From: Psammoneis japonica
Lineage: Eukaryota
Length of the DNA stretch: 64,000 nucleotides
Reading direction: 5' to 3'
Assembly (NCBI GenBank): GCA_008632985.1
Contig: QPGO01000171.1
Span: 1 to 64,000 of the forward strand
A program made the position numbers and the translations under genes. Below are positions 1 to 64,000 of this stretch, piece after piece. Numbering within the stretch: the first letter of the stretch is position 1; each line of letters opens with the position of its first letter. The notes below the pieces were generated by a model that saw only the letters and a program-made list of their open reading frames with translations, did no database searches and was not told where the DNA came from.

Positions 1-1485
1 TGCATGGAGAATGGGGTGGATGGTCATGGTTCAAACAGCTGCTCAGCTGCTTCTCATCAACAAAAAACTGCAACAGAGAACCACAATCAGCAGACTCATG
101 TCCACTGATCCATGAAGATGCCCACATTGGAAATTCGACTTGTGTTCTAAGTTGCACCACACTTTGTTCCATTTCGAAATGTGTGCCACTGTCAAGGTTT
201 TCTAATCAGGAGGAAGGTCTGGCATCTGATTTTGTTTGCAAGATGTCCACAACCATGCCACCATCTTGCCTTTCAAGAATGCCAAAGGGGCAAAAGAGTG
301 GGTGCAGCAGAAGGTGAAAGAGGCCAAGGACAGGAGGCATCCACTGAACTCATTCAACATGGTTGCATGGTTTTGATGGAACACTGTGCTGCCCCAAAGA
401 GCAAAGGGGTTGCAGAGTTTGTGAGGGAGTTCAAGGGCAGGCAGTGCACTCCACTCATCTGAACCTTTGCTCCTGCATCTCTAAGCCAGGTGACTGGAAC
501 ATTGCAAGTGGTGACACCCCCCATTCTCTCATGAGACATGCAGTGACTCCACAAGGGGGCAGGTCAAGGAGTGCAAGACACAATGAATCTCAGACATGGC
601 AACAATGACCTGCAGAGCAGTTTGGAAAAATGCAATCAAGGGATGAGGGACATCTTCATCATGGGACCCCACAAATGCAGAGGGACCCGCAACCCAGAAA
701 TGTTTGGAGTTCTACGTGAATGCATGGGGGCTGTTCACGCAGGTTTTGCACCAGAGCCATCTTGCAAACCAGGCATTTTTTCAAATTGTCATCATGGAAA
801 CTGTGCCAGTTTTGTGCATGCAAGCCACACATTTCAGCACCACATGCAAAAATTTGTGTGGACCTCCACAGGAGGGTCCCCTCCACATTTGTGGGGTCCC
901 ATGATGAATCTGCAAGTTGAGACATGTCAGACAAAGCCAGGCCAAAATGGTGTGAATTGGCCAACTGCAGAGGCCCAACAACCAACCCCTTCACATGTGC
1001 TCAGGTTTTTCCTTGCTTCCATGGTGACCGGAAGAAAATGCACAGAGGTTGTTCTGATTTGATGGCTCACAATCACTCACATCCAGGAAGGGTTAGATGT
1101 GACACAGAGCTTCAATCATTTGAAAATGTTTGGAGGTCCCATTGAATGTGCACATCCAGTTTTTGTCCACAGGTGTGCACATGGGGCAATGGTGTGACAG
1201 AATGCAACCCAGCAGACAGGAGAGGGGAGCAAGGCACAATGTCAACAGTTGCAGCAATGGATCATTTGGATTTCATCTCCAAAGCTGACACTTTAGACTT
1301 GAGAGTTGCCAGGGTGGGGTGATTGGCATTGGTGGTTTTCTCCACAGCCATCAACCTCACTTGCAAACTCATGATGGGGCTTGCATTCATTGTTTTCTGA
1401 AGCAAGATGCTGTTGATGGAAAGGTTGTTTTTGAAGTCATGGGCGGGGCAGTTTTGCCCCACCTCATGACTCTTGAGCAAGTTGG

Positions 1486-1774
1486 TTGAGGACAGCACAC
1501 CACCATCCCACACTTCAAATTGCACAAGCAGCACACTGCCCTCTTGGTTTTTTTTCATTCCACCATGTTGGTGAGGTGATTGCCTGTGGTTTCCTTGAGC
1601 TCCACTTTGTTGAAGGCTCCTGCAACCTTGCTGACATTTTCAGCAAGCACAGGGTTGATGCTCCCAGATCTGGAGCCTTCTCCATCCTCTCTTGTTCTGG
1701 AACTTTGATCCTGAGGTTTTGGGCCAATCTGATTTTGAATCTGTTTCTGTGGCTCCTTCAAGCAAAAAAGGGAG
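1486..1774 (+). pseudogene. 3' end (RNase H) of a degenerate Copia/CoDi-like pol, 5'-truncated, ending in the PPT
   Basis: Translation ...SFHHVGEVIACGFLELHFVEGSCNLADIFSKH aligns with SFHRVREAIASGFLEFHFIEGSRNPADILSKN at 28360-28460; purine run AAAAAAGGGAG directly precedes TGACAGG at 1775. Confidence 0.85.
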
Positions 1775-2298
1775 TGACAGGATTTGAGCAGGATTTCATT
1801 TGTGTGTGATTTGCCCCATGCTGTGTTTGTTTGTTGCACACAGACATGTGTGTTCTTGGTTCCACACTGTTGCATGATGCAGTTTTGTGATTGAACCACA
1901 TGCATCACAAGAATTGTGACAGCAGTGCTGATTCTATGATGCAACATGTCTTTCTTGGCTCCTGTGGCAGTTTTTGCACAGAGACATCTGCCACACAAAT
2001 TGGGTGTCGCCACTTGCAGCGAGAATGGCAGTGGCGGTTTGTCTGCACGGTGATTTCTGCACATGTTTTGCACTTTCATCTGTTCTCACCACCTCCAGCC
2101 CAATCCATCCAATTGGAATCAGGTTGGTTGGGTTTGGGCTGGAGGTGGTGGGGACAGATGAAAGTGCAAAACATGCACAGAAATCACTGCACAGACAGAC
2201 TGCCACTGTGATTCTAGCTGTAAGTGGCCACACCCAAAATGGCAGCAAGGAGTCATTGTTTTCTCCCAAAACTGAATTTTCTTCATTGTTTTCTGTCA
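1775..2298 (+). mobile_element. 3' LTR of a Copia element (relative of the 10365/28584 LTRs) interrupted by a foldback insertion
   Basis: Starts TGACAGGATTTGA and ends TTCTGTCA, like LTRs 10365-10613, 28584-28828 and 44482-44726. Confidence 0.8.
2002..2235. mobile_element. ~234-bp MITE/foldback element with ~100-bp inverted arms
   Basis: GGGTGTCGCCACTTGCAGC...ACCACCTCCAGCCCAA (2002-2103) is the near reverse complement of TTGGGCTGGAGGTGGT...TAAGTGGCCACACCC (2134-2235); absent from the other LTR copies. Confidence 0.8.
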
Positions 2299-4141
2299 TT
2301 TTCCCAACAAGTCATCTGCCCACTCAAAAGAATGTCACAGTTGACCACAGAACACTGTGCACCCCTGCTGCAAAATGTCTCACAGATGTTGGACAGATGA
2401 AGCACCTGGGTTGCATGCAGGCTGTGTGCCTCAGTTCCAGAAATTGTCAAACCCTCCACAACATGTCCCACAGAAAACACACCAGAAAACATGCTGATCA
2501 CATGATGATTGATTGCATCATCTCATTGAAGCCAGTGCCCCCTGCACCACCATCAAACAGCTGTTGTCAAACTTGTCGCTGAAGCACAAAGGGAAGGAAT
2601 TGGTGGTCATTTCATTTAACTTCATGATCAAGCAAAGACTGGGCAAGTGCAAAATTGTCCCTTTTTTGGTTGGTGCTGACATGTGTCATTGATTTTCACT
2701 GTCCACTCCCCTCTGTTGCACCTTGCAAGCAATGACATGGAAAAGTGTGTGTCTTTTCATTGCATCTTGCAAAGGCACGGTCTTTCTCGTGACAGAACCA
2801 CTCTCTGTCATGAGTCCATGCATTGGCTGTCTTTGTGCACATGCTCACACACATCCAAAGGTCTCCTGTGGTGACCCAGGGTGTGTGAAGCATGTGCAGT
2901 GCAGTCGACACACAGACTCATGATGGAAAGTGTGAACAGAACCATCGTTTTAGTGTTTGTCACAAAATCACTTTTTGTTTTTTGCACGAGATGTGCTCAC
3001 TCACAGACTGTCCTCTTTCTCATTGTCATGCAGGTTTTTAGTCTAAATAACACCTTGGTGTTGTTTTTTGGTGCCTGTGTGAGAAGTGGTTGGACCACAG
3101 CCTTGAGATTCTTGGCAAATGCAACACCGGCGGGCTCACATTTGGCAGAGGGATGACACTTTTTGTGCTCTTTGAGATTTCCACATGGTTGCATCACCGT
3201 GGGGCACATTGGGTGCACAGGCAAGACAATGTGAGCATCTTGCTTTTACAAAGATTGTTGACTCACCCAATGGTCATGCTTCATGCAGGATTCAGCACAA
3301 AGAATGTAATTTTGCTGCCCTGCCGTTTGTCAAAAGATGTGTCACAGTCAAGCTGTGCCAAGCACTTGCACCTGTCAACGTGAGCTCAACTGACATGACT
3401 GCGAATGGAGATGATGTCACAGCAACAACAAAATGGGGATGCCTTTGACAGCAACCGCATGATCAACACCATTGTTCAGATTGTGCATTGCTCATCACGA
3501 TCGGTCGCGATAGCGTCGTGCACACTCAATACACTCTCTTGAGCCTACCTGGTATAATACGTAGAATTCTACGGTATGATAGTTACACGATGAACCTCAA
3601 GCTAGCGGATGGACCAATAATGTGCGCCACCTCTGTCGCCTCTGCCTCCGTGGAGACACTGATCGAAAACCGAAAATGCCATGGTCCATGGTCCGTTGGC
3701 GGAGTTTATTGTTGGGTCGAGCAAGGGATGATACCAAGTTTTTGGAGCTTTCTGTGGCCACTTTCTGTGTTCATTTTATGCGTGAAAATGCACCAAGACT
3801 CACTGACAGACTGGACGAGAGAACGAGAAGCTTTGTGGAACCTACTGGCACCACCAGACCACCGATTGGTCATGTTTCCCCTTCCCTCTCTTACATGACT
3901 CCTGATCATCATTTCAGTGAGAATATCCAAATTAGAGACTTCGCCAGTGGTTGAGAGTTAAGAAAGCCAGGCAAGCAAAACTGTGTAGAAACCATTCTGC
4001 GAATCACTGCTGAAACACTAAACGTAAAGTTTTGGAGGAAAGACACATCATGTCGCTGGTGGGATTGATTTACTTGCTGCCACAATTCTCCGGCAATCAG
4101 GAAGCAACCAATAGAAGAAAAGACAAGGCGAACCTTTCAAC

Positions 4142-6205
4142 ATGAAAGGGTATCAAAAGGAACGATTTCTTCAACCGGTTGAGCGATATCTCTTTTTTTG
4201 TAATGCGACTCATGACGCCACAGCTCCTCAATCGTTCATGTCTGGAGTGAACGCATCTTTTCTCGGTCCCTTATCTCCAACAAATACCAACTATCCGCTA
4301 CAATGTGATGGCACTGGAGTCAGGTCAAATCTCAGTCCGCAGGGCGTAATGCCTGCATCTTTTCTGGAGTCACATGAAAGCTTGCATTTGCTGAAGCATC
4401 ATTTCTCTCAAGTAAACGCAACCGGTCTTTCTTTTGAATTGTGGATAACCCCGGACACTCATGACAAACCAAGTGTGCTGAACCCTTCCTCCGCTGAGAC
4501 AAACCCTGTGTTTACGATTGCTGGAAAAAGTAGTTTGCTTCCGCCGTACAATTGCGATGGATATGAAGTCCTGTTAGCACGAAGGGGTCCTGTCCTGCAG
4601 CTGACCTATTCTGTAGGTGATGCTTTTCATAGCTGCCGTCACCTTACCACTAGTAGCATGTCTCAACGGGTGTCATCGGCGCTAACTCATGTGATTGTAT
4701 CATTGAGTGATAGGTAGGTTTGTTGGTTGCGTGCGCGTCGCAGAAGCTCGTCCCTCTAGGCCTAACACGCACCTATGCTGTGTCTATAACAGAGAAACAA
4801 CAGTCGCAGTGAACGGAATACCTTTCACAGCAGAATCGCAGACCGATCGTTTCGACTTAACTCTTCGGCACTATGGCTCACATGACACGTTACAGATTCT
4901 CCCGGGTCCCAAGCCATTTCAGGGTGTTGTCCACTCGTTTGCGTTGTATGACACTTACATATCTGCGGCAGAAGCTGAGGCTAGATTTGTTCTCGGAACT
5001 GACTCGGACGTACCGGGACCGCTTGCGAGACAGCTTCGTGCCATTCCTTCGAGCAATTACACCCTAGTTCAAGGTCGCACCAGTGAAGGAGCCATTTGGT
5101 TAAGAGGGGAAAGTGTGCCCAAGTACACGGGTCCATTATCTGTTGAGATTCTCTCTCTCCCCAACCACGGTTTCCTGTTTCCTTTGGACGAGATGCGTAC
5201 TCTTACCGTCGGTTCAATCCTTGAACTCGACCGGAGCACGCTGCGGGTACCAATCCTCTATTCATCATTTTCCTTGGACTATTTTAATGCTCCACCCGTA
5301 TCAGCGAAAGGAGCCAATCTGAGGATATCGCCGGAATCATTCATGTTTCGTGTAGTCGCCCCTCATCCCGAAACAGGAATTAATCTTATGGTATCGAAAC
5401 CCGCGTCCCAACAGATCCGGGTGCTCAACATGAACCATAGACCAGTTCTTACAGCTCCTCACCGTCTTGTGTTCGAGTCTACGAGCTCATATGATGGAGC
5501 ACGCACGACGATTTCTCATATATCTTTGGCCGACAAAGACAGAAACGTAGACAAAGTAAGGGTTGACTTATTTGTCCGGAATGGCACATTAAGCCTTGAT
5601 GAACATTACCTTCATCTTGCAGACTTCCGCAGTTGCCTAGATCGACCCTTCGGGACATGGGAATGTCATGGAAACACTGCTAATGTTCGGTCGGTAAGTT
5701 CCCCCGCCGCTCAAAGTTCGTTTAATTTCGATTGTATTCACAGATTTGAGCATTCTTTCTTGTGTGCGTAATTTTTAAGATGACATTCCTTGCCGTTCCA
5801 GAAGATGTAAACTTTATTCTTCGAGATATGCAGTATCTTAGCTTCCCCGGTATATCGCAAGACGAACTGGTCGTGCGTGCATATGATGGTGTTGGTGGCG
5901 AGTGCCTGGCCCAGTTTGAGCTCTCGAGCTTTGAGGATGAGTTTGGAAATTCATACGCACCCGTACAAAGCGGCTGCCATGAAGTTCACGCTAGCATTGA
6001 AATTACAGTCAATCGCATTGTTGATCAAGCAAGTTCTTTCTACCTTGCCCAGTTTTTCTTCGTATGCGCGGCACTCGGTCTGTTTCTTATTGTCGGGTTA
6101 TTTCTCTTTAGGTGCTGCTTGAGCAAAATGTCACGGTGTCGAAAGACGCTTGCTGCGTTGGCGGCGTCTACTCAAGTGTGCAGTGGTTGTAGCTCTGAAG
6201 AATAA
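4142..6205 (+). CDS. Putative single-pass membrane protein with LamG/concanavalin-A-like and cadherin/Ig-like extracellular regions; exons 4142-4713, 4793-5693, 5780-6205 (true start may lie upstream)
   Basis: Three ORFs join in frame through GT-AG introns 4714-4792 (GTAGGT...CTAAC...AACAG) and 5694-5779 (GTAAGT...TTTTAAG). LamG-like motifs SFELWITP, THVIVS and FQGVVHSFALYD; cadherin-like linker VLNMNHRPVL; C-terminal TM FFFVCAALGLFLIVGLFLF followed by a basic/Cys tail. Normal CpG/TpA content. Confidence 0.75.
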
Positions 6206-7299
6206 AATTTGGAAAATATTGTTTCACTGCCGTAACTGGTGCTTTTTATCCTTTCTACATGGCAATCAAAATTGTGTTGGTCACCAGTCCCAAGTCTCGT
6301 GCAAATTTGTTGTTTGATTCGAGGCACGACCAGCAGCAGTTTGATGCGGAAGTCGAGCCAGGTGTCAATCTGCTCCATTTCAGATCTTTGCATCTTTTTC
6401 TTCAATCTTCTCTGCACTTTGATCCCGAGTCAAATTCTCAAACGTCCCTCACACGCTCTTTTGGGAAAAATCCTTCTTGCGAAGCATTGTGGTGACATGC
6501 CATCATTCTCTCCGTCACAAGCACCAGAAAAATGCGTTCTCCACGCAAAGTCCAGTGGTCCAGTGCTTCTGCCCCACCAGTCATGGTCTTGAAAATGCCA
6601 GCACTTTGTTCTTGCTCACTTTTTGGGTGTTTTTCACCTTTTACGTTTTGACAAAGCACACTGCCGTTTCACAATCACAAGGGTTTCTTCTTAATGCTTC
6701 TCACAGTGCCAACCAAGCAACATCTTAAAAGTGTTTTCATTTCCACTGACTGTGTGTTGGTGCAGAGGTCACTCCTGCCAGCAAAATGTGCTGGTGTGGT
6801 GTGCTGGGATCTGCATCAGGTCACGCTGTGATGACCTGCACAGTCTCACAGCTTCTAAGCAAAACATCACTGATTCTCTTTTGCACATGAGCATTCTGAC
6901 ATCACACTTGAGCATTTTCAACATGAGAACTTGTGTGCTCTGTTGTCACAATGGTGTTAAAATTATTGCAAACTTCTTTTGCATTTTTTGGGTTTCATTG
7001 GCCAAATGTTGTACAGGGTGCAGTGCCTTGGTTTCATCAGCCAAAGATTTTGCAGAGTGCAGTGCCATTTCTGCTCACAAACCACAACACAGCACTGGCC
7101 AGACCATGTCACTGTGCAATGCACAGCAACGGCTGTCTCCCAGCACCAGCATCGTCATGTGTTTTCTGACACCTCACTTGAGCCTTTTCAATGCAAGCTT
7201 GTGTGCTCTGTGGGCCGTGACAACATCAAAGCCATTGCAACACCTTGCGCATTTTTCAACCTCATCCTTTGAAGAGATCTGGTGAGTTTGTGGTGATGA

Positions 7300-10200
7300 T
7301 TCCACAGATGCAAAACTCAGCATGTGCGAGTGCTAATGACAACTGCCCCTGGCACCAATTGTGCATTTCCACCACTGCCAACCTCTCCAAGATTTGAGAT
7401 TGGTCCATCTGTTTCCATGTTTGCTCGCAAACAAGACCAAACAGCAAGCAAGATCTCCAAAGCTGCTGGTCTCTAAAATCACACCAACCACCCCAAACCA
7501 CGCTTCCAGCACCTGCCTCTAGCTCTTTTTGTGGGAATCTCCAACTCAAAGGGCCTTCAATGTCAGGCAACAACTTGCAGCTTTTCATCAAGCTTTTGGA
7601 ATTCCACCAAAAGTGGGCACCCCTGTGCAACATGTGAGCAGCACCAAGAAAATGCTCCCTGCAATGCCTCAACCAACAATGCAGAAATCATGTGTGAGGA
7701 GATTGGTGCAGAGGCACCAGCGAGTGTGCACATGGAAGACAGAGTGGAGCTCAAGTTTAGCTCAAACTCCAAGCCAGCTCCATCTGGATGCACATCCACA
7801 CTGTGAGAATGGATCAAGATCAAGCGTGACACCACCAACAATGCCCAGCAAGTGGAACATCTCACTGCAACAGATGGCAGAATGCAAGTCTTGGAATGGA
7901 GCCAAGAAGAAATGAAAATTTTCCAAGAAGTCCCAATCACTGAGGAAAGGCAAAACCTCTGAGTTGCTGTTTTGTTTTCAGAGACCAATGAGATGTTTGC
8001 AGACAGTCATCCTGGAAAATGACTGGGGGATACAGAACTCAAGTGGGACAGACTCAAGAAAAAACTCCAAGGCCCAATGTGGCAGAGCCTTGTGCAAAGC
8101 AGCTGCTCAGTGCCAACAACAACTGAGGATCCTGAGGTGATGGAAAACACTGCAGTTTGAGAACCTGGAACAACAGGACAGCTCCACCAACAATGTCATG
8201 AGAGAATGCAAGTTGGCTGTGGTCAAACGGCAGCCACAAAGAACGCTCCCACAGAGTCAAGCCACAAGCCCAGAGGAACAAAGAAAGAGCACAGAGACTC
8301 AACCAGATGATGTGGACACTTGTGCACAATTTCAAGTGCCCAGCTCTGCCCCTGTGACACAAAGAAAACACATGGTGCAAAAGCCCATTTACAATGAAAG
8401 TGCAGGGCTTGCATCCACTTTGCATGCAAAAGTGAGATCCATTTGGTTGGGACAAATGAAAATGGCAACACATCAAGATGGCAGAAAGACTCAAGCTGTC
8501 ACACAATGACATGGTGCTGGATCATCTGGTGGTGACACCACCAAAACAAGTGGTTGGCGCACAGTGTTGCACAGATTGATCTTGGCCAACAGCATGCACA
8601 GCTGAGGGTGCAAAAGAGGTCTCACCTGCCGGGAATGCCAACCAAACAGAGAGATCCTCCTGTTGACACTCCGGCTGATCCCAGCATGGGAACTGAACAG
8701 CACAGCAACTCTTCCATTGCCATTGAACAGCAAATTGCAAGAGGCCTCACAACAGGACCCAGATGGAAAACTGTGCATCAATGCATTAGCAGCAGGCACC
8801 ACTCTCAAAAGGTCAAAGCTGTCAAACCCAGAATTCAGCAAAGAGCTCTCCAGATCAAATGACTTGGAACCAAGGAAAGCATCCTGCATGGTTCCAAAGG
8901 CAAGAAACAAAGCCTGTTCAGGCAGGTTCAAACAAGATTGAGCCCAAGATGACACAAGCAAACCATCTTCTCTGCCTTGTGCAGGATGCTCAAGCTGCAA
9001 AAGACCTGCTGGAAGATCACAGCCAGATTCTCACAAATGGACACTGGGATGTGTGGCATGCCAGGTGGTCAATGTTGCCAGCCATGAAGCACAACAAATC
9101 CTGAAGACCACAGCCAATGCCCCATTTTACATTGCAATGTTGGGTGCATGGCAAGTGGCAACTTGGCTGCAAAAAAAAAGAAGTTGGTGATGAAGATCCC
9201 TGCATCCACGCTGGAATGATGCCAATGCTGAGAGTCAATGCATTGGCATGCTGGAACTCAATGACCTTTGTCAACTTCTGCACATTAGAAGATGCAGCAC
9301 AAGGCCATGCCTTCAACTCTTGCACTCTGTGAAACCACCAATGGCACTGACAATTGTGTTGCAACTTTGGAGCACCCAGTGGTCAATTGCCCCCTGTGGA
9401 ACACATTGGGAATTGTCGACTTTGGCAGATGTTCAAAGGTGGCACCAGAAAACAAGTTCACCTGACACAAGACTGAGGATGCACACCCCACATTCCAAAT
9501 GTGCAGCAACAATGATGGCAACAGCAGTGCCAATGACAACAGCCACATGAGCACCAATGGCACAACTGTCAGCAACAACAGTGTGTGGAATGCTGATTGA
9601 CATGATGAAAATGCCAATGAAGCCTCAGCAGACATGCAAACAGATGACAGCATTGCAAATGCCACACCATCAATGAGCAGACCATCAGAGGCAGCTGCCA
9701 GCCCCCACCTGACAACAAAGAGGCACCTGCCAAACACACCAATGATGCAATTCCAGGACAACAGAGTGGAAGGAAATGCCTTCCTTTGAAACTGTCAAGC
9801 AATGACAGTGCCAACAAACATGAATGCATGGACAACAGGTCCACACAAGAGACCCTGTGGAACAAGGTGCAAGAGCCTTGCAACAAGTTGTTCTTCATCA
9901 GCCACTCGTCCAAACAAGGAGCCACTCCCTGCTGCAAGCATTTTGTCCAAGTAGATCTTCTTGTCAATGCACCCCCAAAATGGCAAAACATTTTGGACAG
10001 CATTGTGTGGTGTCATGCTTTTGGCATCAATGGAACAGCACCACAAGGAAAGTGTGAAAAACTGCTGTTTATGGCCCAAAGTGCACAAGCTGCATGCTCA
10101 CAACACCCTGGGACCCACAATGCAAGTCAAGCAAGGAAAGACAAAAGCTTTGCCTGTGTGGATGAAATCAACCTGACAAAGCATGGCATCCTGGGATCTT

Positions 10201-10364
10201 TTGACTTTGCACCACCAATGGACCATTGGCAGAAAAGCCATCAGATTGGTGATGAACATTGGTGGGAGCTGCAAGCACTCAACTGTGACACACCATGTTC
10301 CCATGACGTGATGGGCAAAAATCAAACAATCTCAAACATCAGCAACCATGATGTGAAGCTGTCA
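7300..10364 (+). pseudogene. Heavily decayed probable LTR-retrotransposon coding remnant
   Basis: 9850-10290 translates to KLFFISH...VQVDL...DEINLTKHGILGSFDF...HQIGDEHWWEL, resembling the post-integrase region at 36830-37290; boundaries approximate. Confidence 0.35.
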
Positions 10365-10613
10365 TGACAGGATTTGAACAAGATTTTAGTTTGTCACACA
10401 CAATTGTGTGTGCTCTTAGTTCTGCACACGTTGTGCATGCGATGCAGTTTGCTTTCGAGCCACATGGCTCACAAGAACAATGACAGCAGCACCGCTGTCA
10501 CGACACCAGTCTTTCGGCTCCTGTGACTGTCTCTGCACAGAGACTCATCTGCCATTTAGACAGCAGCAAGGAGTTGTTGTTTTCTTCCACCCAGTCATCT
10601 TCAATTTCTGTCA
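10365..10613 (+). repeat. 5' LTR of the Copia element
   Basis: ~245-bp direct repeat of 28584-28828 with 6-bp terminal inverted repeats TGACAG/CTGTCA. Confidence 0.92.
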
Positions 10614-10630
10614 GATTAACAGTCTCACTC
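10614..10630 (+). promoter_or_regulatory. Putative primer-binding site complementary to a tRNA-Asn(GTT) anticodon arm
   Basis: GATTAACAGTCT follows the LTR immediately; its reverse complement AGACTGTTAATC is an Asn anticodon stem-loop; the same 12-mer abuts the LTR at 44470-44481. Confidence 0.55.
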
Positions 10631-42200: not shown

Positions 42201-42219
42201 CATAGATGCGCACAATGGT

Positions 42220-49748: not shown

Positions 49749-49931
49749 TACGGTAGCTACTAGCTACTAGTAGAGAGGGTAGGGCTAGAGGACCTACACT
49801 TCCTCATTTACTACGGTATCGAAAACCCTCTGCTGCTCTACCGTAGCTCTACTCTAGCTAGAGAGAGTCCTGCCTGTGGATCTAGCGTTGCAGCTGGCTG
49901 TTTCTTGCGTCTTTCTTCGCTTTGTAAGAAG

Positions 49932-52900: not shown

Positions 52901-53361
52901 ACGAGAAGGAGGATGATGTGGATGAAGACTACGAAGGGTTTGGAGAGGATGAGGATGTAACGAACGAGGTAGATGACGCGTACAAGAAAGCATTGAATGG
53001 TATATCAGGTTTTGGGGACGACATGGCTGCATTTCTCATGGGTGGTGACTGGGATGAGGATGGTGAAGACTTTGAAGACGAATTCCAGAGCCCACTCGAT
53101 GAGGTGGACCAGGTGCTCTTCTTGAGTGATACTCTGCAGGGTGCTTTCCAACGAGAACCTGAGGTATGTGTCTCTGCCCTCCATGTCACTGTTGTAGTAT
53201 TTTTGCGCCTCAATTAGTTTTAACCCTTTTCCTTTAAGAAATATCGTCAGATTCAGTCGGCGATTCCCGTGGAAACGCTCAACTCTTGTCAGAAAATATT
53301 TGCAGAGGCAGATAGCTTGCGAGCAACACAAGCAGTTGAAGTGCCCCCAAAGGCAGTTTAG
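49932..53361 (+). CDS. IPO7: Importin-7/8 family karyopherin (SAD2/Nmd5-like); exons 49932-50078, 50166-51692, 51778-53163, 53239-53361
   Basis: IBN_N start (SFSPEASVRGPAEQTI, VRQAAAIQMKN), DFPERWP, WPWWKVKKW, FENDPHEFV, FLRCRACW, LPVQIEASKALRFLI and an acidic C-terminal tract; GT-AG introns 50079-50165, 51693-51777 and 53164-53238 keep the frame. Confidence 0.93.
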
Positions 53362-55069
53362 GCTTTTCCGAAGATTGGTTGTCACATGAGAAAGCATTCA
53401 GCTTTGTCAATTTGTTAACCCTGATTTGTGTGATGGCGAAGAACAGAATAAAATTATAGCAAAATACACCGCAATGAAATCAAACAGGGGATTACCCTTT
53501 GGAATCAAATTGGACTACATGCTGTGCACTAATGCGTGGTGATAACCAAACAGTGTGATGAGGACCAAAGCTTAGTTTTATTGCCGTTCCGTGCGAGATC
53601 TGAGAACAAAAACATCAATTTGACCAAGATCACCAGGACCGCTGCATTTGGAAGTGTCGTTGTCATGTCTTTTAAGATGAAAGGTGGACCAGATCCTTTT
53701 AGATGACAAGACGAAAGAAGATGACTCTTGTTGTGATGGAACATGTCAACCACCTCAATGTTAAGATGAGGAAGATCAACATGCAGCTTCACATTGGTGA
53801 GCATGGCAACACTCTCCTTGAGAAAATTATAGATGTGGCCACCAACACTCTCAAAACATCATCTGGCTTTTTCAATCTGGGGAACAGTGCCTGTGGTTCT
53901 GCAATTTGTGAGATGATGACTGAGTTGGACAGGTCACTTGATGATTTATTTGAGTGGTGCCTCCATCAGTGTCTTTTGGGCGCATCACTCAAAAAACAAT
54001 CTCTCACTGTTCTGTGGTGTCCTCACCACCTCACATGTCTCATGGCCATTGTCACACCTGCTGCTCCATGTCTGAAAAAGTGGAAAACAACAAGAGCTGC
54101 AAGTTCAATCCTGGTTGGAAGAACTGTGCTCTGCACAATTGCAGCGCATCTCATGCATGGCATGTCCCAGCATGTCCCCAAGATGCATCAGTCTTTTGGT
54201 GCTCCCGCAACTCAACACATCCACATTTGATCTTGCCAACTCACATTTAAAAGTGGGTTCTGGTGCTGCTGAGCAGAGCACCAAGCGATTGCACAGCAAA
54301 CAAGTGCGACTTCTGTGGCTGGGTGCCAGACAAATTGTGGCAAAACCTTCACTTTTCACTGAACATTCTGATCCAGTCATGCACCTTTGTGCTCCTGAAA
54401 GCAGCTCCAAAACAAATTTCATGTGCATGTGAGAGTGTCTTGGAACAAAAGGAATCGGACATTGTCACAAGGTGCCACGCCAATGCTCAACTGACAGCAC
54501 CTTTGTTTGATCCCGTCACCGTGTAAATTGCATGTTTGAGTGCCTTGCTCATCTTCTGCACTGATGTTTTTGCTTGTGTCTTCACACAAAGAAGCTCAAT
54601 CATGCGTTCCTGTTGTCGTGCAATGCATGTGCAAAGTTTTTGCATGCCTGGAATGTGGCCATTGCATCCCCTCTTTTTGGATTTGATCATGCTCATGTGC
54701 TTGCTTTGAACAGTGTGCGCGCAAATGCACACACAGTTGGTGCCAGTTTCTGTGCATTTCCCTGTGGGTTTTGCACCACAGGTGGTGCTGTTTGAGCATT
54801 TGGGGTGTGAATTTTTGATGGATTCTTTGGGTGGTTGTGCGAGATGATGTCATTCATCATTTGGTGAACATGTGTGGTGCATTGCTCCCTTTTCTTCTCT
54901 GCATTGTGTTTTTTGCATCTTTGGCAAATGCATTGGTGGTTTGTGGTGGGACGAGGGTGAGTTCTGCAGCTGGGTTCTTCCGTTTTTATTTGGTGCATTC
55001 GAGCTTGGTTGGATCTGCGATGTCATCGGTTCCATTTTTGTTTTGACATGGTGGTTCATTCTTTTCTTT

Positions 55070-55485
55070 TGGGCACTGCAATGTGTGCCAAACAGGTGCT
55101 GCAACTTGCACTAGATGGGCACCACAACATGTGCTAAATGGGTGCTGCAACTTGCACTTGACGGGCACTGTAACATGTGCTGAGATCTTTTTGTCTGTTC
55201 TTTTTGGGCACCAAAACATGTGCTGAACAGGTGCTGTAACTTGCACTGGACAGGCACCACAAAATGTGCTGAGATCTTTTCATTTTGTTTTGTTTTCTTT
55301 GTTGATTTTTTGTTTTTGCATTTTTGGATTTCAATGGTTTTGCAGACACTGCAATGTGTGCCAGACTAAAATGTTTCTTAACAGGCACTGTGACATGTGC
55401 CAAACGGGTGCTGCAGCTTGTGCTGGATGCACACTGTGACATGTGCTAGCTCTGGTTTTATTGTTTTTGGTTTTGCTCTTTTTGT
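55070..55485. repeat. Cluster of imperfect short repeats (GGCACTG.AACATGTGCT.AA..GGTGCTGCAACTTGCAC), probably a decayed subterminal repeat array
   Basis: Unit recurs at ~55071, 55117, 55163, 55206, 55384 and 55431. Confidence 0.6.
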
Positions 55486-57559
55486 TTTGATTTTGCATGT
55501 TTGGCTGGCACTGCAACATGTGCTAAATTGTGCCAGTTCTGACAAATGAGATGTGGCTTTGTTTGTGGCATGTGAGCACATGGGAGTGGAGTGCTCACTT
55601 GGTTTTCTAGTTTCTTTTTCTTGGTGGAAGGTTTGTCATGATGTTTGCCAGTGGTGTCAGCCAATGCAGAGGTTGGTTTGGGCCAAATTTTCTTGGGGAT
55701 CAATTCTCATCCTCTTTGCTTGCCTGAAGGGGTGTTTGTTGGCATTTCAAAGTTGAGTGGTCACTGGATGAATGCCAACATTGACTGATGTGATTATGAA
55801 AAAAATGATGATTTTGTTGGATTTTTTGCTTGCCCTTGCCTTTTGGGTGGTGTTTGATGACTTTTGCTGCAAGAGAGGAAACACGCAGTGCCGCTGTGTT
55901 GGCAACAGCAATGTTGACATTTCTGCTTGGTGATTTGAGGACAAAGGTGAGAATGCCAACACTGGCTGAAGTGGGCTTTAAAAATCTTATGGTTGTGTTT
56001 GCACTCATTGCAAAGCCTGTCTTTTGGGCGTTTGATTTTTTTGTTGCACAGTTTTTATCTCACTGTTGCTCTTGTTTTGTGATCCCTCACAGGTCCACCC
56101 AGCACCCATTGCAGCGATGGCATGAACACCATTGTGGACCAATGTGATGATGAAAAAATGATGCTTGCAGTGGATTTCTTGCTGCTCCTCACCTCTTGGG
56201 TGTTTTGCTGCTTTTGCTCTGAGAGAGGCACAAACAGGGCCGCCGCGTCTGACACAGCAGCACTCACAATCAAGCTCGGCACTCAGACTGCAAAGGCAAG
56301 AACAACTGAATTTTCTGACCAACATGTCGTCAATGTGATGGACATGTTTGTTTGTTGTGCACATGGCATCTTTTGGGCATTTGATGCTTTTTGTGTGTGG
56401 CACAGTTTTTCCCTCACAGTTTCTCCTGTCTCGCCGTGGCTCACAGGCCCACCACTCTCGGCACCCATTGCAGCATGGGTGCCAAGGTGATTGCAGACCA
56501 AATGGTTGTTAAAAAACACATCTCAAGCCAAGCATGTGGAACAATCCGCTGAGATCAACGGCAGCAACCCTTGGTCATGCCTTCTGTGCTGGGGAGCCGC
56601 TTGTTTTCTTGTCAAGCTGGTGGAAGTGCAATGAGGTGCTGATTGTTCTTTGGGCTGACACAATTGTTCAGTGCCATTTAAACATAAAACTCACAACAGC
56701 AATCTCAAACAGGTGCTTTAGAGCTTGTCAAAGTTGAAAGTGGTGCAAGTCATTGGTCTGCTTTCCCACAAAGAGTGTGAACACATCTGCTGCACTCAGG
56801 ACACCTGTGAGTGCTGTTTTGCCATGCCACCATGGATGCAGTTGGCATTGGTGCAGTTGCCAGGGTTGCACATGGCAATGCTCATGGTTGAGATGCTGCA
56901 TTGAGATGACTGGAACTTTCAGTGTTTTTTTTTGTTCCTGCCGTCACACCCAACCTCACCAAGGACAGATGATTTAGATCGTGCAAGAAGCAAGGGGTGC
57001 GCAGGGTGGAATTTTTGGCTCCGGCAAAACTCCACCGTGCCTTCTACCTGAGTGCAACAAACATGCAAGAATCCATCTGTGTCTCCCCCCTGCCCTGACC
57101 CCAAACAAACCGGAGACAGATGGGTAAGATGAAGTCGGGGTTTGGGGCTGACGACTTTCAAAATGACCAAATTTGCAAGGGGTCTTTCCACACAAAACAG
57201 TGTCCAATGACTTTCGCACACTTTGGAGCATCACAAAAGTTCCCATGTTAACAAATGTGAAACATTCCAAATTTTGCATTGCCTCAGTCATTTTTGGGTT
57301 GGGATGCCATTGACTCCCAGCCAAATGATTGGCCAACTCTCTATTTTGAGGTCATAAATTTTAAACATTTGAGTGCCAGTTGCTTTGTCTTCTGTTTGTT
57401 GACCTTTGTCTGTGGATGTGACAAACACTTTTTCCATTGAGATGTTGAATGTTTGGATTTTGTGCCAAAGGACAATTGCTTGACGCAAGCCCAGATTGTT
57501 GCCATCTTGTCAAAAATCATTGTCCAATGATTGCAATCTTCAGTTGCAATGCCTTGCAC

Positions 57560-58730
57560 AGTCACTTGCAGCAGGAGCCAGAGCCTTCTGTGACCCCTCT
57601 CTTTTGTTGTTGTGTGCTCCTGAAGTGACCAACAAGGAACCCACTCAATGCCAATGATGCACCATTCATTTTCCTGCCTTCAAGCTTCTTCCTGAGACAA
57701 TGTCCCTTTCTTGTTGTCACTCTAGCTGGAACCACATGAACCCAGTTGTCTCTGCAGTCAAAGTTGTTGAGAAAACCAGGCCCGCAGTTGTCCCCCCCCC
57801 CCTGGAGCCAGTGGTGCACAGTTGCTGTGTTGTTGCACAAAACTGGGAACTGGGTCATCTGCATCCTCTGACTGGTTTTTGGAATTCTCTTGTGAATGAA
57901 ACACAGCAACAGGAAAGTTGACAATGCATGACTGAATGTGAGACAAGCCTTTTCCTTGTGATGAGATGGTGCCTCAAGACAATGGACTCAGCTTGTGAAA
58001 TGCAGGTGCTGACTTCACCCAGTGACCATCAATCCTAACCTCATCAACTCCAAATCATTTAAAAAACATTTTTTGATCCCTCAAAAAAGCCAACATCATT
58101 GCTGGCCTTTTTCATCTCCATGGGAAAACTTGAAAAGTGGGTCCACATGCCTGTTGATTCATCCCCAGCTTGCTTGATGTGAGCATCCAGACAGGCTGCA
58201 AACAACATGTCATTGGACATCCAATCTTGAAAATCCACATGGGCTTGCACCTGGTGTCCTGCTTTTTTCCATTTGAGGTTGCTTGCTCAGAGCAGGACAA
58301 GGCCAAGGCCAACGGGTGGCTGTGGGGGTTGGAGGAGGTGGCTGTGCAAGAGATTTTGAGTGTGTTCCTTCTGTGGCATCTCATTGAAAATGCCATCATT
58401 GACAGCATTCCTGTCAAGATTGGCAGCAATGGCACAGGTTGCATTGCTTGGAATGTCACTTTCCAGTGTCCACCAGGCCCAGACACAATGACATGCTCAT
58501 TGATTTCCTTCACGTCATCTGCAGTCAGCTCTTGAATTGTTCAAAAGCATGAAAGAATCTCACCCCGCACTGCATCATCAATGAATCAGTGATTTTCTCT
58601 GAGTTTGATGAAACAGTTCAGCCATTCTTGATGCCAGCCATTGTTCAATGTCTTTGCAGTGGACAAACAGCAGATGATGATGGATGCTCTTTTGGATCAG
58701 TGGCATCAACTGTTTTATCTTAAATGCATG
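57560..58730 (-). pseudogene. Decayed PIF1-like (SF1B) helicase C-terminal half, possibly from a Helitron
   Basis: ENH*FIDD...GEIL...LTADDVKEINEHVI (motif III region); KIGCPM; QFPVLCNNTATVHHWLQG (motif V); NWVHVVPARVTTRKGHCLR (motif VI). Confidence 0.65.
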
Positions 58731-58734
58731 TTCA

Positions 58735-61700
58735 TGAAGACAATGAGACACAGCCGTTCAGCGAAGCGTCCAATTCCACTTTCTAGAGTAGAAAAATGCC
58801 ACTTGGGTAGAATTTTGGGTGCAACGGCACGGTGCAGTGCTGTGCTGTGCCGTAGAGAGAGAGAGAGTACAGTGGGTGGCCCTACAGCAGAGAGCAAACA
58901 AAGTAGAAGTAGTGCGGTGCGTGCACATGTCGTGACACTCGCTTTGCTGCATGGTCGAAGCTCGCGTGTCCACACAGCTCCGAGTGCCTTCCTAATGTGT
59001 CGACTGGATGTCCACTCCAGACCGACACCTCAGGCAGAATGCAAGCAGACAGAATCTACCAACGAGTGACAACGAGCATTTAGTTTCACAAAAGTGCTGG
59101 TGACCAAATCACAAGCCACCTAGACTGAATCTGCTGAATGCACCCAAACAGAGGTTGATCCGCAGGTTTGCACTAGAGACTGGTGCAAACTTCAGGGTTG
59201 ACCACATTCACAACAATCATCCAAATGCTGCTGAACCAATCTATGGTTGGTCCAACATCTGTGCAACACCTGTGATCTCCAAAGCACCGCCTATGATCCC
59301 CAAAGCGTTCGGCTTGAGAATCGAGTCGACGTGGCGCGAAAAGAATTTCAATGAGAATTCCGACCGATGGAAGTACAGACACAACAGAGAATCTGGGTCG
59401 GTGGACAGACGACCCACGACTCTCCCTCTCATTCACAGATTCCAGCAACCAACAAGAAAATCACAAACGAGAGAGCTCACACAATTGGCACAAGTTCAGA
59501 GCAAAGCTCCTGCATCTTGACCGAGCCACAACACATGACAAACAAAGGAAGTGATGCTTCCAAAGTGCTGCCACCCTTGGACCTTTGACCGGTTGTTCTT
59601 GAAGAGCTCTCGAGTCAAAGGCTTGGTAAGATAATCGGCGAGTTGCTCAGCCGATTCAACCTTGATCGTATTAAACTCATCACAATGCGACCAGAACCAA
59701 TGCCACTTGACGAGAAAATACTTGGCACGATTGGTGATGTGGTGGTTGGCAGCCAGGCAGCAAGCGCCTTGATTGTCTTCAAACACACGCACATGAACCG
59801 AAGTCCTGAGATCTTGGGAGATGTCTGGGGTAGAGACGATCTCAAGGAGCAGGTTCTTCAAAGGTGGGAGAGTCCAAAGAGCACAGGAGGCAGCTTGACA
59901 CTCGGCTTCGAGGGTGGAGCAGGAAACAGCTGACTGGAGCTGCGATTTCCACACCAAAGGGCATCCACTGAGAGTGATGATGTGTCCGGTGCGAGACCTA
60001 ACAGAATTCAGAACAGAATCCGCTTCACAGCAATGGAGACCAGCAAAATCGGCATCAACCCACAAATCAAGATCCAAACGACTGGTTGGAGATAGCAGCA
60101 TCCCCTGATCACGCGTCCTCTTCAAGCAGCGGACCAGAGTCTTGACGGTGGTGGCATGCGACTGCTTCGGGTTGGAATTGAAGCGCGCAACCTGACTGAC
60201 GGCAAGGGAAATGTCAGGACGGGCATTGGTGAACAAACACAGAAGCATTCCAATGACAGAGGGACAGCTCCAGTCCTCCTGCACAGGATCTCCATCCACA
60301 TCAGCACCGAGGGCTTGGGACGCTGCGGGGAGCAAGTTTGGTTTGCCATCAACCAAACTGGCAGCAAGCAGGATCTTGTCAATCAACCCTTTCTGCGTCA
60401 ACTTGACAGTGCCATCGTCTCGCCTTTCGAACTTGACACCCAAGAACTTGGTAAAACTGCCCTCTTTTGTCAACTCAAATCCTTTCTCGCATGGCTGGGA
60501 CATCAGCTGATCAATGGTGGACTCCTGTGCTGCGCTGATCCCACAATCGTCGACATGCAGGCAGACCATGCAATCATGGCGGAGCAGGAGACATTGGTCA
60601 TACTTGCTTTGGATGAAACCCAAGTCCAAGAAGGCATGCAGACAATGTTCACACCACAACTTTGGAGCCGAAAAGAGTCCACAGAGACTCTTGACAAGCT
60701 TGAGAAAAGTCTTGGGTCCTTTCGTTGAGCCGAAACCTCGTGGAAGATGGATCCAAACTGGTTCTTCCATGGGAAGTACTGCTTGAACGAATGCGGACTG
60801 GAAATCGGCGGATGCCGCATGCCATCCAAGAATGAGACTCAACACCAAGAATGCTCGAACCGCACTCCAGGCCACAACCGGTGCACAAGTGTCAAACAGA
60901 CTTCCTTCCTGCAGCAGCGAGCCTTGCACTTCTTGATCTCACCAGAAGGTGATCGCTTGCGATGAAATGCCCAAGTGCCAGGAAGGATCTTGGTTTGAGC
61001 ATCGGATGCAGGCACCTCGACCCACGTTCCTTGATGGACGAGTGCTGCAATCTCAATCTCCGCTGCTTTCAACCACTTGTCGCGATCGGAAGAGCGCATG
61101 GCCTCGTCCCACGACAGCATGTCCGGATCCTTGACTTTACGCGCCGATGCCTTGCACACAGTGGGAGCAGTCATGGATGTGTTGCAACCGTGATCAAACT
61201 TGTGTGCACAATGGAAATCAATGAAGTGGGACAAGCATCCATGTCCCTGAGATCCATCACATCTCCAAACCGGTTGGGTGCAGCACGATTCCAGGTAGAA
61301 CGCCAAACTGGGGTTGGAGAGGGGCATTGTGCGCTGGGTGGAGCCACAGGTGGTGACTCCCTCTCTTGACCAAGATCCAAAGAAAGACTTTGAGGGGCAG
61401 GAGGCTCCCTCTGAGGACTTGGTGATGGATTTAAGTTGGCAGTGGGTGCTCTCTCCCTCTGAGGTGAGTCTGAAACCACAGGTTCAGTGGGAGACTCCAA
61501 AGGAGGCATGGACTCCACAGCAGGGACCAGAGGTTCCATGGCAGGACTTGAGGGGGCCTCAGAAGCAGATGCTGGTGCCTGAGCAGCCGGAGGAGGGACC
61601 TGTGAGGGTTTGGGAGGCAACCGGCGGGTGACGGTTTCTCGAATTTCCTCAGATCGGCACTCACTTTCAGGGCATTCTTGACGGACATCGACATCAGCCT

Positions 61701-64000
61701 GCTCTTCATCATCCACAGCACATTGACACACACTGTCTCCAAAAAGAGACGTCCATTCCGGAGACCCAATGGCAGGTAACAAGTTGGCATCGGCAGGAAC
61801 CGTTGCAAACCAATCATCAAAAATGACATGGAATTGGGGAGTGATGGCTCCCGTTTCAAGACTCAAGACTAATGGGACTGATGAGGCATGCTCGGGGCTG
61901 AGTCCCACGCAGACATGCCAACTCACGCAGGGTTTCCACTTTGGCAGTTCCTTTCCATCGGTGAGAGTTTTGTCAAGAACGTAAACAGGGCACCCCCAAA
62001 CATGACAATCCTGGAACCGAGAGTGGGGATTGCGCGTCTGAGTAAACACATCCTGTGGACTCAGACCCACAGATGGGTCTGGCATCACGTTATAAAGCAC
62101 AACAGCATGGTCCACAGCCAAAGGCCAAAGAGTAGCGTCTGCAACATCAGGCCAATGAATTGCTGCATGCAACATCACACTTCTCGCGATCGACATTGCA
62201 GTGTGTGTTGCTCGTTCACAAACCCCGTTGTGATGGTGAGCTCCCACACTGGCATGCTTTGAAACTTGTGCAAAAGACTCCAAGTGAACTCTGAAATTGG
62301 CCGACGTGAATGCCTTTCCAATGTCGCTCAAATGTTCTTGGGGAACAACGCCACAATCACGACAACGGGCCTCAAATGCGTTCTTGGCCTTCAAAGTTTC
62401 ATGGGTGTTGAGGTGAGTTTGATGTTGAACGTTGACACAACCAGATGCATGATCCACAAAAATTGCTCCACCTGAACACTGATGTTTTATGTTCTCCTTT
62501 CCAAAAGCATGTTTCAGATGACCACGCATGGAACAAACAAAGTGATCAACCGATGCTCATTGACCAGGGAACAGTTGGTTTTTCTTCAAGGCTCCAGCTC
62601 GATCCTTGACCACACGAGAACTCTTTCCGGGGCTGGGATGGCGTTTTTGTTTTCCACATTGGCATGCAGCACAAAGGGGCAGACGATCGACACGACAAGA
62701 GCGCGTTAATGCAAATGACGGGCACCCTCGGAGTGGGATGGAACTCCCGTGTGCATCAAAAATTGCACCTTTCGAAAGCTTGGATGGCCGAGACGAAAAT
62801 GCCAACGTAGTGACTCCTTTTCAGCAGGTGAGACATTGTGATTGTGTTCCATTGTCGTTGACAACATCAAATGAAACTCCTCACAAATTCGTTGACTTGC
62901 TTGATTTGCATGGGCCCATCCAACCGGTAAGTTGGTTGAAGGTTCAACCAACACCTCAACACCATGCCTGTGTCCTTGTTCGCAATCCTTGGATCCACTG
63001 AGGCTCGATAGACTCATCCGAGCATGTCTGCAAGAGACTGGTTGTGCTCAAGAGACGAGCCTTGGACTTCGGGATGTAGTGGGCCAGAACCTTCAGGGTC
63101 TGAAGCACCCCAGTGACATCAACAAAAGACCAAGCAACGTGTCCCACACCTGCCACATTGAGTCCCTTAGCAACACCTTGGAGCCGGATGGCGACAGGTG
63201 GTTTCTCAAGAGGTCTGACGAAGTCGTCCTTGCAAGCAAGGTGAGACCGATGCGCTTGCACCTGAGTCCCAAATGACTGGGAAAGTGTGCTCTTGAACCA
63301 CTTCCTCTGTCTCCTTAGGACTCGCAAAAGCCACCTTGAGAGCACCAGCAACAGAAAGCAGGGATGACGGGATGTCAGCATTTGCTAGATGAGCCTTGGC
63401 TGCCAGGGAGCAGATGGCATCAAGCTGGGAGCACATCAAACCGTGCGCAACCTTCGAACTAGCAGGGCGACACGTGGGTGTCTTGAGGTTCCGACCACCT
63501 TGATGATGAACATCGGGACCCCTTTTTAGAGCAGTGCTCTTACAACGTCTGGCACCCTTGGGACAACCTGCCTCTCCCTCTCGACCAAGGAGAGGACGTG
63601 CGCATGAAGGTGAGTGACCACTCGAAGGCCTTGACCTCCCCGCTTGTGTGTCATGCAACTGATCACGCTGCTGCTGCTTGACATTGGGTGCTCCACGGGC
63701 TCGTTGGACGAGAGAGGGATGCCTGGCTGGAGTGTGGCGGCGTCCGGAGCGAGGCTGAAGCTCCCGCAGGCGACGACGCCCCCAACGACCACGACGCTTG
63801 GAGAACTTGGTTCCTTGGCGTGTAGTCCAGCAGGGAGGTGGGGGAGGAGGAGGAGCACGTTGGGCTTTGGCACGAGCATCATGCTCAAACTTAGATGGCA
63901 AGAAGACGGCCGCTAGAAGCATCAGGAACCAGAGAGCAGGTAGAGGGTAGAGATGCCAGTGTGACGAGATGTGCGACGCAACAACCGTCATGAGCCAGAC
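58735..64000 (-). mobile_element. Second Copia (CoDi-like) element, degenerate, running off the window; PPT GAGAGGGAG at 59422-59430, 3' LTR approximately 58735-59420
   Basis: Protease IWDSGAS; WHFRLGH...CAACQCGK; integrase IFVDHAS, LSDIG, GAHHHNGVCER; RT KKCKAR, KSLCGL..APK, CLHVDDC; RNase H VDADFAG, EAEC, EDNQGA, ADYLTK. LTR limits not established. Confidence 0.88.

Follow-up and report, generated by a model that had tools for sequence, protein, structure and literature searches.

TpA hypermutation alongside CpG decay as the likely cause of dinucleotide loss in a 64-kb nuclear region of the diatom Psammoneis japonica

The window analysed here, which is the whole stretch of 64,000 bp at positions 1 to 64,000 of contig QPGO01000171.1 (assembly GCA_008632985.1) of the diatom Psammoneis japonica, consists of a few islands of normal composition surrounded by depleted DNA. 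In nearly all DNA outside the active genes, the TA and CG dinucleotide steps are converted to TG/CA. It is likely that two context-specific transition processes have acted in place on this nuclear region, one of which is a TpA hypermutation of the kind described in the chlorarachniophyte Bigelowiella natans, whereas the other is a loss of CpG that presumably starts from 5-methylcytosine (5mC). The analysis covers this one 64-kb window of one genome. The original prediction, made from the letters alone, had postulated a second, strand-symmetric A:T>G:C process at TpA, which is now borne out by polarised TA>TG/CA changes in three coding sequences and in repeat copies.

Composition of depleted DNA and normal islands

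Over the whole window, the observed/expected ratio (o/e) is 0.25 for TA and 0.48 for CG, compared to 1.60 for both TG and CA. Counts in 500-bp bins delimit five stretches of normal composition (~3500-6300, 47500-53600, 14000-15500, 16500-17500 and 38000-38500), which add up to 11,905 bp and have a TA o/e of 0.62 and a CG o/e of 0.86. Two of them are gene islands that lie roughly where they had been predicted, and the three further short stretches, which the prediction had left out, are part of a younger repeat family. The remaining 52,095 bp, corresponding to 81% of the window, contain 554 TA steps against 3,466 expected (o/e 0.16) and 1,217 CG steps against 3,049 expected (o/e 0.40), with TG and CA raised equally (1.69 and 1.68, respectively). 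Most 1-kb windows outside the islands have a TA o/e of 0.04-0.3, down to 0.04-0.08 in the deepest ones, together with TG and CA values mostly of 1.4-2.5. The earlier count of 3 TA and 2 CG in bases 1-600 proved exact, and the same bases hold 60 TG and 74 CA. The share of pyrimidine-purine steps is nearly the same in the two compartments (0.2446 vs 0.2443) and so is the GC content (48.4% vs 47.4%), as predicted if TA and CG were turned into TG/CA by transitions. One-kilobase windows with a Rho of TpA ≤0.43 and a Rho of CpA+TpG ≥1.52, the cut-offs for a footprint of the B. natans type, are present in the window.

The short-read contigs of run X1 (depth ~35) agree with the window without a single difference over 2179-10392, 11487-14097 and 17410-20000 (>13 kb), which gives the depleted sequence read support and excludes polishing errors, an artefact that the original prediction had wished to see checked. 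No consistent coding-strand bias was seen in the 500-bp counts. A strand skew was observed at 54501-56000, where short tandem repeats carry 77-82 TG vs 32-43 CA per 500 bp in a window that is elsewhere balanced; it may reflect a native satellite composition or a process that locally favours one strand.

Preferential loss of conserved tyrosine codons

To read the direction of change, the codons of the window were compared with columns conserved among homologs. Three unrelated coding sequences were compared in this way; they are listed here together with a second copia-like element that carries one of the predicted motifs:

59499..63047, minus strand: copia element (reverse transcriptase (RT), gag-pre-integrase) with the Pfam matches RVT_2 (E 7.8e-21) and gag_pre-integrs; HVDDC at 60546-60557
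23400..28600, plus strand: copia-like element with TpA almost gone and CpG half kept; RVT_2 at 27199-27594 (E 1.2e-11), HVDDL at 27448-27459
13788..22814, plus strand: long interspersed nuclear element (LINE) with apurinic/apyrimidinic (APE) endonuclease and RT, interrupted at 14001-17457; CVDD at 19818-19829
38438..38722, minus strand: upstream part of a host gene fragment (1,3-beta-glucan synthase); Pfam Glucan_synthase (E 1.1e-18), profile positions 996-1091
32324..32710, minus strand: downstream part of the same fragment; profile positions 1094-1154 and 1244-1280

The copia element was compared with 120 homologs, among which 148 columns are at least 90% conserved. The window keeps 128 of these residues and changes 20, by TA>TG (10), TA>CA (2), CG>CA (2), one other transition, two transversions and three multi-step changes, so that 12 of the 20 changes are transitions at TpA. 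Kept are 1/7 tyrosines, compared to 10/10 phenylalanines, 7/7 tryptophans and 14/14 glycines; about 80% of the conserved tyrosines are thus lost with few other changes. A>G outside TpA accounts for only 1-3 changes vs 10-16 TA>TG.

The LINE is nearly full-length against a profile of ~2,000 aa built from 45 homologs that carry Exo_endo_phos and RVT_1, with 13788-14000 covering positions 37-107 and 17458-22814 covering positions 106-1867. Among its 276 columns conserved at 70% or more, 61 are changed: TA>TG 7 (and two ambiguous), TA>CA 4, CG>CA 8 and CG>TG 5, with TpA transitions making up 11-13 of the 61 and the CpG transitions coming in addition. The remainder are seven other transitions, 16 transversions, 11 multi-step changes and one that is ambiguous between transition and transversion. 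Only 2/10 tyrosines are kept (five changed to Cys, three to His), as opposed to 18/19 tryptophans.

The glucan-synthase fragment, with both parts compared to 45 homologs, follows the same pattern and keeps 1/7 tyrosines and 3/10 arginines but 5/5 histidines and 4/4 aspartates. Its upstream part reads LHCGHPD where yeast FKS1/GSC2 has LHYGHPD, an alignment that confirms the predicted replacement of HYGHPD by HCGHPD. When the three sequences are pooled, 5/27 tyrosines are kept vs 527/681 other residues (Fisher p 4.3e-10), and at least 17 of the 22 lost tyrosines became Cys or His. Arginine is also affected (26/45 kept, p 0.003), with R>H, Q, C or W seen as expected of CG decay in coding sequences. 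Read from these codons, TA>TG/CA is the direction of change in three unrelated coding sequences. The conversion of tyrosine to Cys/His that had been noticed in TE (transposable element) proteins is thus seen in copia, LINE and the host gene fragment alike, and the three motifs HVDDL, HVDDC and CVDD are all present as listed above.

As a reference for the native state, 80 related copia loci were taken from metagenomes. They have a TA o/e of 0.33-0.72 (median ~0.5), none below 0.33, and a CG o/e of 0.26-1.24, whereas the TA o/e of the window copia is 0.07-0.12 (60001-63000). The family is therefore moderately TpA-poor, but the low TpA of the window copia is not native, which for this element answers the question of native composition that the original prediction had raised.

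Differences between repeat copies

The same steps distinguish the copies of repeats, of which the following were used:

10361..11022, plus strand: high-copy repeat LTR_A, with copies at 44095-44730 (minus) and 28575-28828 (plus); 84-91% identity by self-BLAST
14001..17457, no strand assigned: younger nested insertion of ~3.5 kb with the direct repeats LTR_B a (15092-15506) and b (17045-17459)
37822-38219, minus strand: third copy (c) of LTR_B
1..3499, no strand assigned: TpA/CpG-exhausted, repeat-derived DNA with 1-5 TA and 0-8 CG per 500 bp

Summed over the aligned repeat pairs, 157 differences are of the kinds CG/TG (45), CA/CG (35), TA/TG (39) and TA/CA (38), in addition to ~77 adjacent double differences TG/CA, 35 other transitions and 82 transversions. 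The LTR_A copies, whose summed contig depth reaches 22,715-66,489, differ mostly by transitions at pyrimidine-purine steps. By three-way polarisation, A in TA undergoes transitions at a rate of 0.18 per site-lineage and T in TA at 0.11; for CG the rate is 0.10-0.12, compared to 0-0.015 outside pyrimidine-purine steps (0.015 for other A). The rate at TA sites is thus ~20-30 times that at other sites, as a lower bound, and A>G is far from equal across contexts, as the original prediction required.

For LTR_B, with copy c as the reference, conversion of TA or CG to TG/CA accounts for 13/13 changes private to copy a and 18/22 private to copy b, with 16 TA>TG/CA events in a and b. Copy c shows apparent reverse changes, as would be the case if ~20 such changes had occurred earlier and were common to a and b. 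Directly compared, a and b differ by 38 pyrimidine-purine transitions vs 3 transversions; if the two are the ends of one insertion, these transitions arose in place. A contig of run X1 joins 13980 to 17460, indicating that LINE copies without the insertion exist.

Comparison of the window with paralogous contigs yielded 1,187 differences, of which the kinds (window>read, X1) are A>G 248, C>T 239, G>A 211 and T>C 266, with 17-37 for each kind of transversion. Among the 40 best-supported of the 1,187 are 10 of TA vs CA/TG, 7 of CG vs TG/CA and four pairs (8 rows) of TG vs CA. At five of the best-supported differences, all within 1..3499 (positions 706, 723, 740, 749 and 826), the window has CA or TG where most other copies have TA. 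Contigs of run X2, one at depth 219, match the old repeat at 656-881 with 15 and 7 differences, and the ends left unmatched contain plenty of TA and CG. This suggests that less-edited, transcribed copies of this repeat family are present elsewhere in the genome.

TpA loss is faster than, and separable from, CpG loss

Losses of TA and CG share domains (Spearman 0.57 over 128 windows), and the CpG half has the footprint of CpG decay, with a CG o/e of 0.40 and CG>TG/CA events. The order of loss is unequal. Ten of the 35 windows with TA ≤3 keep CG ≥15, whereas none of the 32 windows with CG ≤6 has TA ≥12. Both copia elements exemplify the former state, with 1-3 TA and 16-21 CG per 500 bp at 23501-26000 and 60001-63000. 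TpA loss outpaces CpG loss and need not be accompanied by it.

Two copia homologs present opposite patterns. In P0350, one of the 120 homologs (of 59499-60938), 7/10 tyrosines are changed to C or H and 12/15 arginines are kept; in P0326, the arginines are changed (R>H 6, R>C 1) and the tyrosines are largely kept. These patterns indicate that the TpA and CpG processes are separable, and the replaced tyrosines of P0350 place the TpA signature in at least one other sampled organism.

Depletion appears to follow domains rather than repeats

The extent of depletion was traced through the following features, in addition to the repeat-derived DNA at 1..3499:

3500..6300, plus strand: gene island 1, an expressed gene of normal TpA and CpG without a Pfam family
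6500..10300, no strand assigned: exhausted, mostly single-copy-looking DNA with 1-6 TA and 1-6 CG per 500 bp and no Pfam match
47500..53600, plus strand: gene island 2 with an importin-7/11-like gene at ~49932-53217; 13-42 TA and 14-28 CG per 500 bp
53601..59000, no strand assigned: exhausted non-genic DNA with short tandem repeats; from 54001, 1-8 TA and 1-10 CG per 500 bp, with the exception of bin 58501 (TA 11, CG 16)

The composition switches within ~100 bp at 3500, 6300, 47500 and ~53600, so that depletion is confined by sharp edges, and TE remnants lie inside. A contig of run X2 covers 3605-4711, 4791-5692 and 5779-6226 and is spliced, hence the gene of island 1 is expressed. Its introns (~4712-4790 and ~5693-5778, 165 bp in total) contain 6 and 5 TA and 6 and 5 CG, showing that non-coding DNA as such is not depleted; for this one expressed gene, the intron check proposed earlier thus finds the introns spared, with 11 TA in 165 bp. 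Run X2 is labelled 'DNA?' and behaves like RNA, given the spliced contig.

The targets extend beyond recognisable foreign DNA. Judged by contig depth, which tracks copy number only loosely, the depleted 6500-10300 looks mostly single-copy: at 80% likeness, the depth in bins 4003-8004 (35.3) comes solely from the 8,214-bp contig of the window itself, and it is 42-48 in bins 8005-10005, whereas the summed depth over 1..3499 is 116-2176 vs ~35 for unique DNA. Conversely, this copy of the multi-copy 14000-15500 is little affected, and the nested insertion to which it belongs has 15-28 TA per 500 bp over much of its length. The single-copy-looking DNA, the gene fragment and the sharp edges favour a chromatin domain, or the time spent in it, over repeat recognition as what is targeted. 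Of the predicted 'repeat-restricted' process, the effect on TE-derived silenced repeats therefore stands, but the restriction finds no support, as single-copy-looking DNA is equally depleted and a multi-copy, younger element has near-normal TpA.

Flanking bases at TpA

The survival of NTAN tetranucleotides in depleted DNA was calculated against two baselines, the gene islands and the 80 external copia loci. Survival within the oldest part (19.4 kb) is 0.00 for ATAT, 0.03 for ATAC/GTAT, 0.05 for ATAG/CTAT and 0.06 for both GTAC and CTAC/GTAG, and rises through ATAA/TTAT (0.29), CTAG (0.41), GTAA/TTAC (0.44) and CTAA/TTAG (0.53) to TTAA (0.85). Losses are heaviest where a pyrimidine comes after TpA on either strand and lightest at TTAA, with a 3' preference of T>C>G>A. 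We tentatively describe this as a preferential loss at purine-T-A-pyrimidine.

Comparison with known systems

In literature searches whose scope mostly excluded subscription journals, only the preprint of Mettrop et al. (10.64898/2026.01.13.699255) turned up for TpA hypermutation, and no diatom report of it was found. The statement of the original prediction that no description of such a system was known is therefore out of date. As far as the available text of this preprint goes, 210/211 and 20/20 new mutations in two integrated viral regions of B. natans (giant-virus and virophage) are A>G/T>C and lie without exception at TpA; their rate is ~6e-7 per site per generation or ~1000 times the background, and they occur in only some mutation-accumulation lines. 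The B. natans genome has 124 clusters of TpA-poor, CpA+TpG-rich windows, the NCLDV (nucleocytoplasmic large DNA virus) region has a Rho of 0.45, and RT and DDE domains are over-represented among coding sequences of low TpA; the same available text mentions neither CpG nor diatoms nor flanking bases (10.64898/2026.01.13.699255).

The likeness to our window lies in transitions at TpA that give TpG or CpA depending on the strand, in confinement to particular regions of foreign or TE origin and in the TpA-poor, CpA+TpG-rich clusters. There are also differences. B. natans is a rhizarian and P. japonica a stramenopile; the former has a Rho of 0.45 in its NCLDV region and clusters defined by a Rho of ≤0.43, compared to an o/e of 0.16 over 81% of the window in the latter; and the rate was measured by mutation accumulation there but is read from the footprint here. 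In addition, the window has CpG decay alongside, a hit host gene fragment, hit single-copy-looking DNA and a flank preference. By its sequence, the window is a much more extreme case of the B. natans kind, from another major lineage and with CpG decay in addition.

Fungal repeat-induced point mutation (RIP) also inactivates repeats in place by context-specific transitions and leaves a dinucleotide signature in sharp domains. RIP changes C>T mainly at CpA and creates TpA, whereas the changes in the window destroy TpA (o/e 0.16), and there is no sign here of duplication sensing. The term 'reverse RIP', as applied to this DNA by the original prediction, is thus unsupported in the duplication-sensing sense, with single-copy-looking DNA hit and the multi-copy 14000-15500 little affected. 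Decay of methylated CpG would account for the CpG>TpG/CpA half of the pattern in non-genic DNA but cannot remove TpA, the loss of which is faster here. The animal ADAR and APOBEC systems resemble the window in host-driven transition hypermutation of selfish elements; they act on RNA or reverse-transcription intermediates, whereas resident DNA, including non-TE DNA, is affected here.

Proposed mechanism and alternative explanations

We propose that silenced DNA outside genes, comprising TE copies, TE relics, the host-gene fragment and single-copy-looking DNA, would undergo two transition processes in place. One would be the decay of CpG to TpG/CpA, presumably at 5mC, and the other a faster hypermutation of TpA to TpG/CpA that acts equally on both strands. 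Together they would shift the pyrimidine-purine steps to TG/CA, leave the base composition unchanged, turn Tyr codons into Cys/His and abolish TAA and TAG stops. The TpA process is best interpreted either as an enzyme-driven genome defence directed at chromatin domains or as a side effect of silencing. It is quite possible, if short of probable, that the enzyme deaminates an adenine preceded by T on either strand, which would be read as G at replication. A TadA/ADAT-type deaminase is a candidate, which the available text of the B. natans preprint also proposes.

From sequence, T>C at TpA is indistinguishable from A>G on the other strand, and TG and CA would rise equally in either case. A thymine route, in which a TET/JBP-type oxygenase hydroxylates T in TpA and the resulting 5-hydroxymethyluracil (5hmU) or 5-formyluracil (5fU) mispairs with G to give T>C, therefore deserves consideration, although we regard it as unlikely. 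The most-hit contexts (ATAT, GTAC and ATAC/GTAT) are palindrome-like and would suit a reader of double-stranded DNA. TpA displays two 5-methyl groups placed as in fully methylated CpG, and T before A is the preferred site both of dinoflagellate 5hmU and of base J in the telomere repeats of kinetoplastids. Against this route, 5hmU itself is weakly mutagenic, and our literature search found neither 5hmU nor TET/JBP in diatoms, the co-mentions being, by their titles, on dinoflagellates. N6-methyladenine (6mA) is unlikely as the cause, as in the diatom Phaeodactylum tricornutum, according to the part of the source available, 5mC is present and 6mA not detectable (10.1101/2024.10.28.620566).

Two further explanations would derive the TpA changes from repair or from RNA. 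Patches synthesised by polymerase eta, where mismatch repair is drawn to the T:G mismatches left by deaminated 5mC and A is changed to G at the polymerase's motif WA, would explain why TpA and CpG are lost in the same domains (Spearman 0.57). This explanation, put forward in the original prediction, is very unlikely, since AA is left intact and TpA is lost ahead of CpG. Few A>G changes fall outside TpA (1-3 vs 10-16 TA>TG in copia; 0.015 for other A vs 0.18), so that WA>WG is not what is seen, 10 windows combine TA ≤3 with CG ≥15, and P0350 shows the TpA signature without CpG loss. Moreover, just 1/211 changes in B. natans is other than A:T>G:C, and CpG goes unmentioned in the available text of the preprint. 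Editing of TE RNA from A to I by an ADAR-like enzyme, fixed by reverse transcription and reinsertion, would fit the predominance of retroelements among the affected sequences and the preference of ADARs for U before the edited A, cited from the available Discussion of the B. natans preprint. We consider it highly improbable, given that a host gene fragment, non-coding DNA and single-copy-looking DNA are affected as well as retrotransposed sequence and that the effect ends abruptly at the borders of genes. TG has risen as much as CA, with no consistent coding-strand bias, and the 38 pyrimidine-purine transitions vs 3 transversions between LTR_B a and b arose after integration if these are one insertion. 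ADARs favour a 3' G, unlike the T>C>G>A preference found here, and to our knowledge are restricted to animals. The changes in B. natans likewise arose in resident, integrated DNA, as the available preprint text describes.

That there was no hypermutation at all, the TEs being natively poor in TpA and CpG or the assembly being at fault, finds some footing in the moderately TpA-poor relatives of copia (median ~0.5) and in the selection of cytoplasmic RNA against CpG and UpA that is described, in the part of the source available, in PMC3829696. We give it hardly any credence and, for the elements tested, reject both native composition and assembly artefact on the basis of the polarised changes, the 80 relatives and the contigs: 22/27 conserved tyrosines are lost, at least 17 of them to Cys/His, with the same pattern in a host gene fragment; 0/80 relatives fall below 0.33; copies of one family differ at these very sites; and the X1 contigs show 0 differences over >13 kb.

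Several points weigh against the proposal of TpA hypermutation combined with CpG decay. The comparison of codons with conserved columns sees only non-synonymous changes. The LINE has 16 transversions and 11 multi-step changes among its 61, and the glucan-synthase fragment, the alignment of which is poor in places, has 24 of each among 73 differences. Three-copy polarisation also yields an apparent TG/CA>TA/CG rate of 0.03-0.07, which we attribute to mis-polarised shared changes, although it may include real back-mutation, and we infer that LTR_B a and b delimit a single insertion. The flank preference is based on survival ratios against baselines of different sequence; an additive per-strand model fits well on the gene-island baseline but under-predicts TAA contexts ~2-fold on the copia baseline. 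With respect to the enzyme, the edited A is followed by G, A or C in the natural tRNA substrates of ADAT2/3, making an ADAT-type enzyme a poor fit to the preference for T and C after A. Run X1 may stem from the same sample as the assembly rather than an independent isolate. Finally, the proposal is based on 64 kb of one genome and on nothing genome-wide.

Implications

Targeted A:T>G:C hypermutation of foreign DNA has been reported once, in a 2026 preprint that, in its available text, deals with one chlorarachniophyte. Our results indicate that the TpA process is not peculiar to one species, and its footprint is deeper here and covers several TE classes, a gene fragment and non-genic domains. 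They also set the process apart from the decay of methylated CpG and from polymerase-eta patches, and the flank preference can be tested. The enzyme could be found by comparing lineages with and without the signature. As a more tentative extension, TpA editing may be an old, enzyme-driven defence common at least to the rhizarians and stramenopiles of the SAR supergroup, one that is independent of cytosine methylation and is both the main and the fastest TE-killing force in diatoms, perhaps through a thymine-modifying enzyme instead of an adenosine deaminase of the tRNA type. In such a SAR-wide reading, the palindrome-like purine-T-A-pyrimidine preference would point to a reader of double-stranded DNA that possibly modifies thymine. 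If true, SAR-wide TpA editing would erase TpA from whole silenced chromatin domains in diatoms.

A practical consequence concerns annotation. The window contains 29 open reading frames (ORFs) of at least 200 aa and 162 of at least 110 aa, in several frames of both strands (e.g. 23222-26057), and most are without a Pfam match; the majority of long ORFs in depleted DNA gave no Pfam family, and most TE remnants likewise go unrecognised by Pfam. Many of these long ORFs are probably false and result from the loss of TAA and TAG, since two of the three stops contain TA and are erased along with TpA. In such genomes, false ORFs and vanished Tyr codons would mislead the annotation of genes and TEs.

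Other features of the window

The two parts of the glucan-synthase fragment are 5.7 kb apart and separated by TE DNA. The downstream part has 57-65% identity (tblastn) to diatom homologs, and a profile search of the window found no further glucan-synthase pieces. The 5.7-kb insertion contains one more element:

32755..33234, plus strand: gypsy-type RNase H remnant (RT_RNaseH, E 4e-12)

A 748-bp unit at 34024-35514 is duplicated in tandem with 98.8% identity within TpA-poor DNA, and the duplication is thus later than most of the depletion. Rfam and tRNA scans of the window gave no matches. The importin-like gene of island 2 has the Pfam domains IBN_N, Cse1 and TPR_IPO11, and its closest homologs are diatom proteins of 72-78% identity. 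Upstream of this gene, ~1.8 kb of DNA of normal composition is flanked by a 95-bp inverted repeat (47534-47628 and 49433-49527, 95.8% identical), possibly the termini of a young DNA transposon or else a palindrome with a regulatory role.

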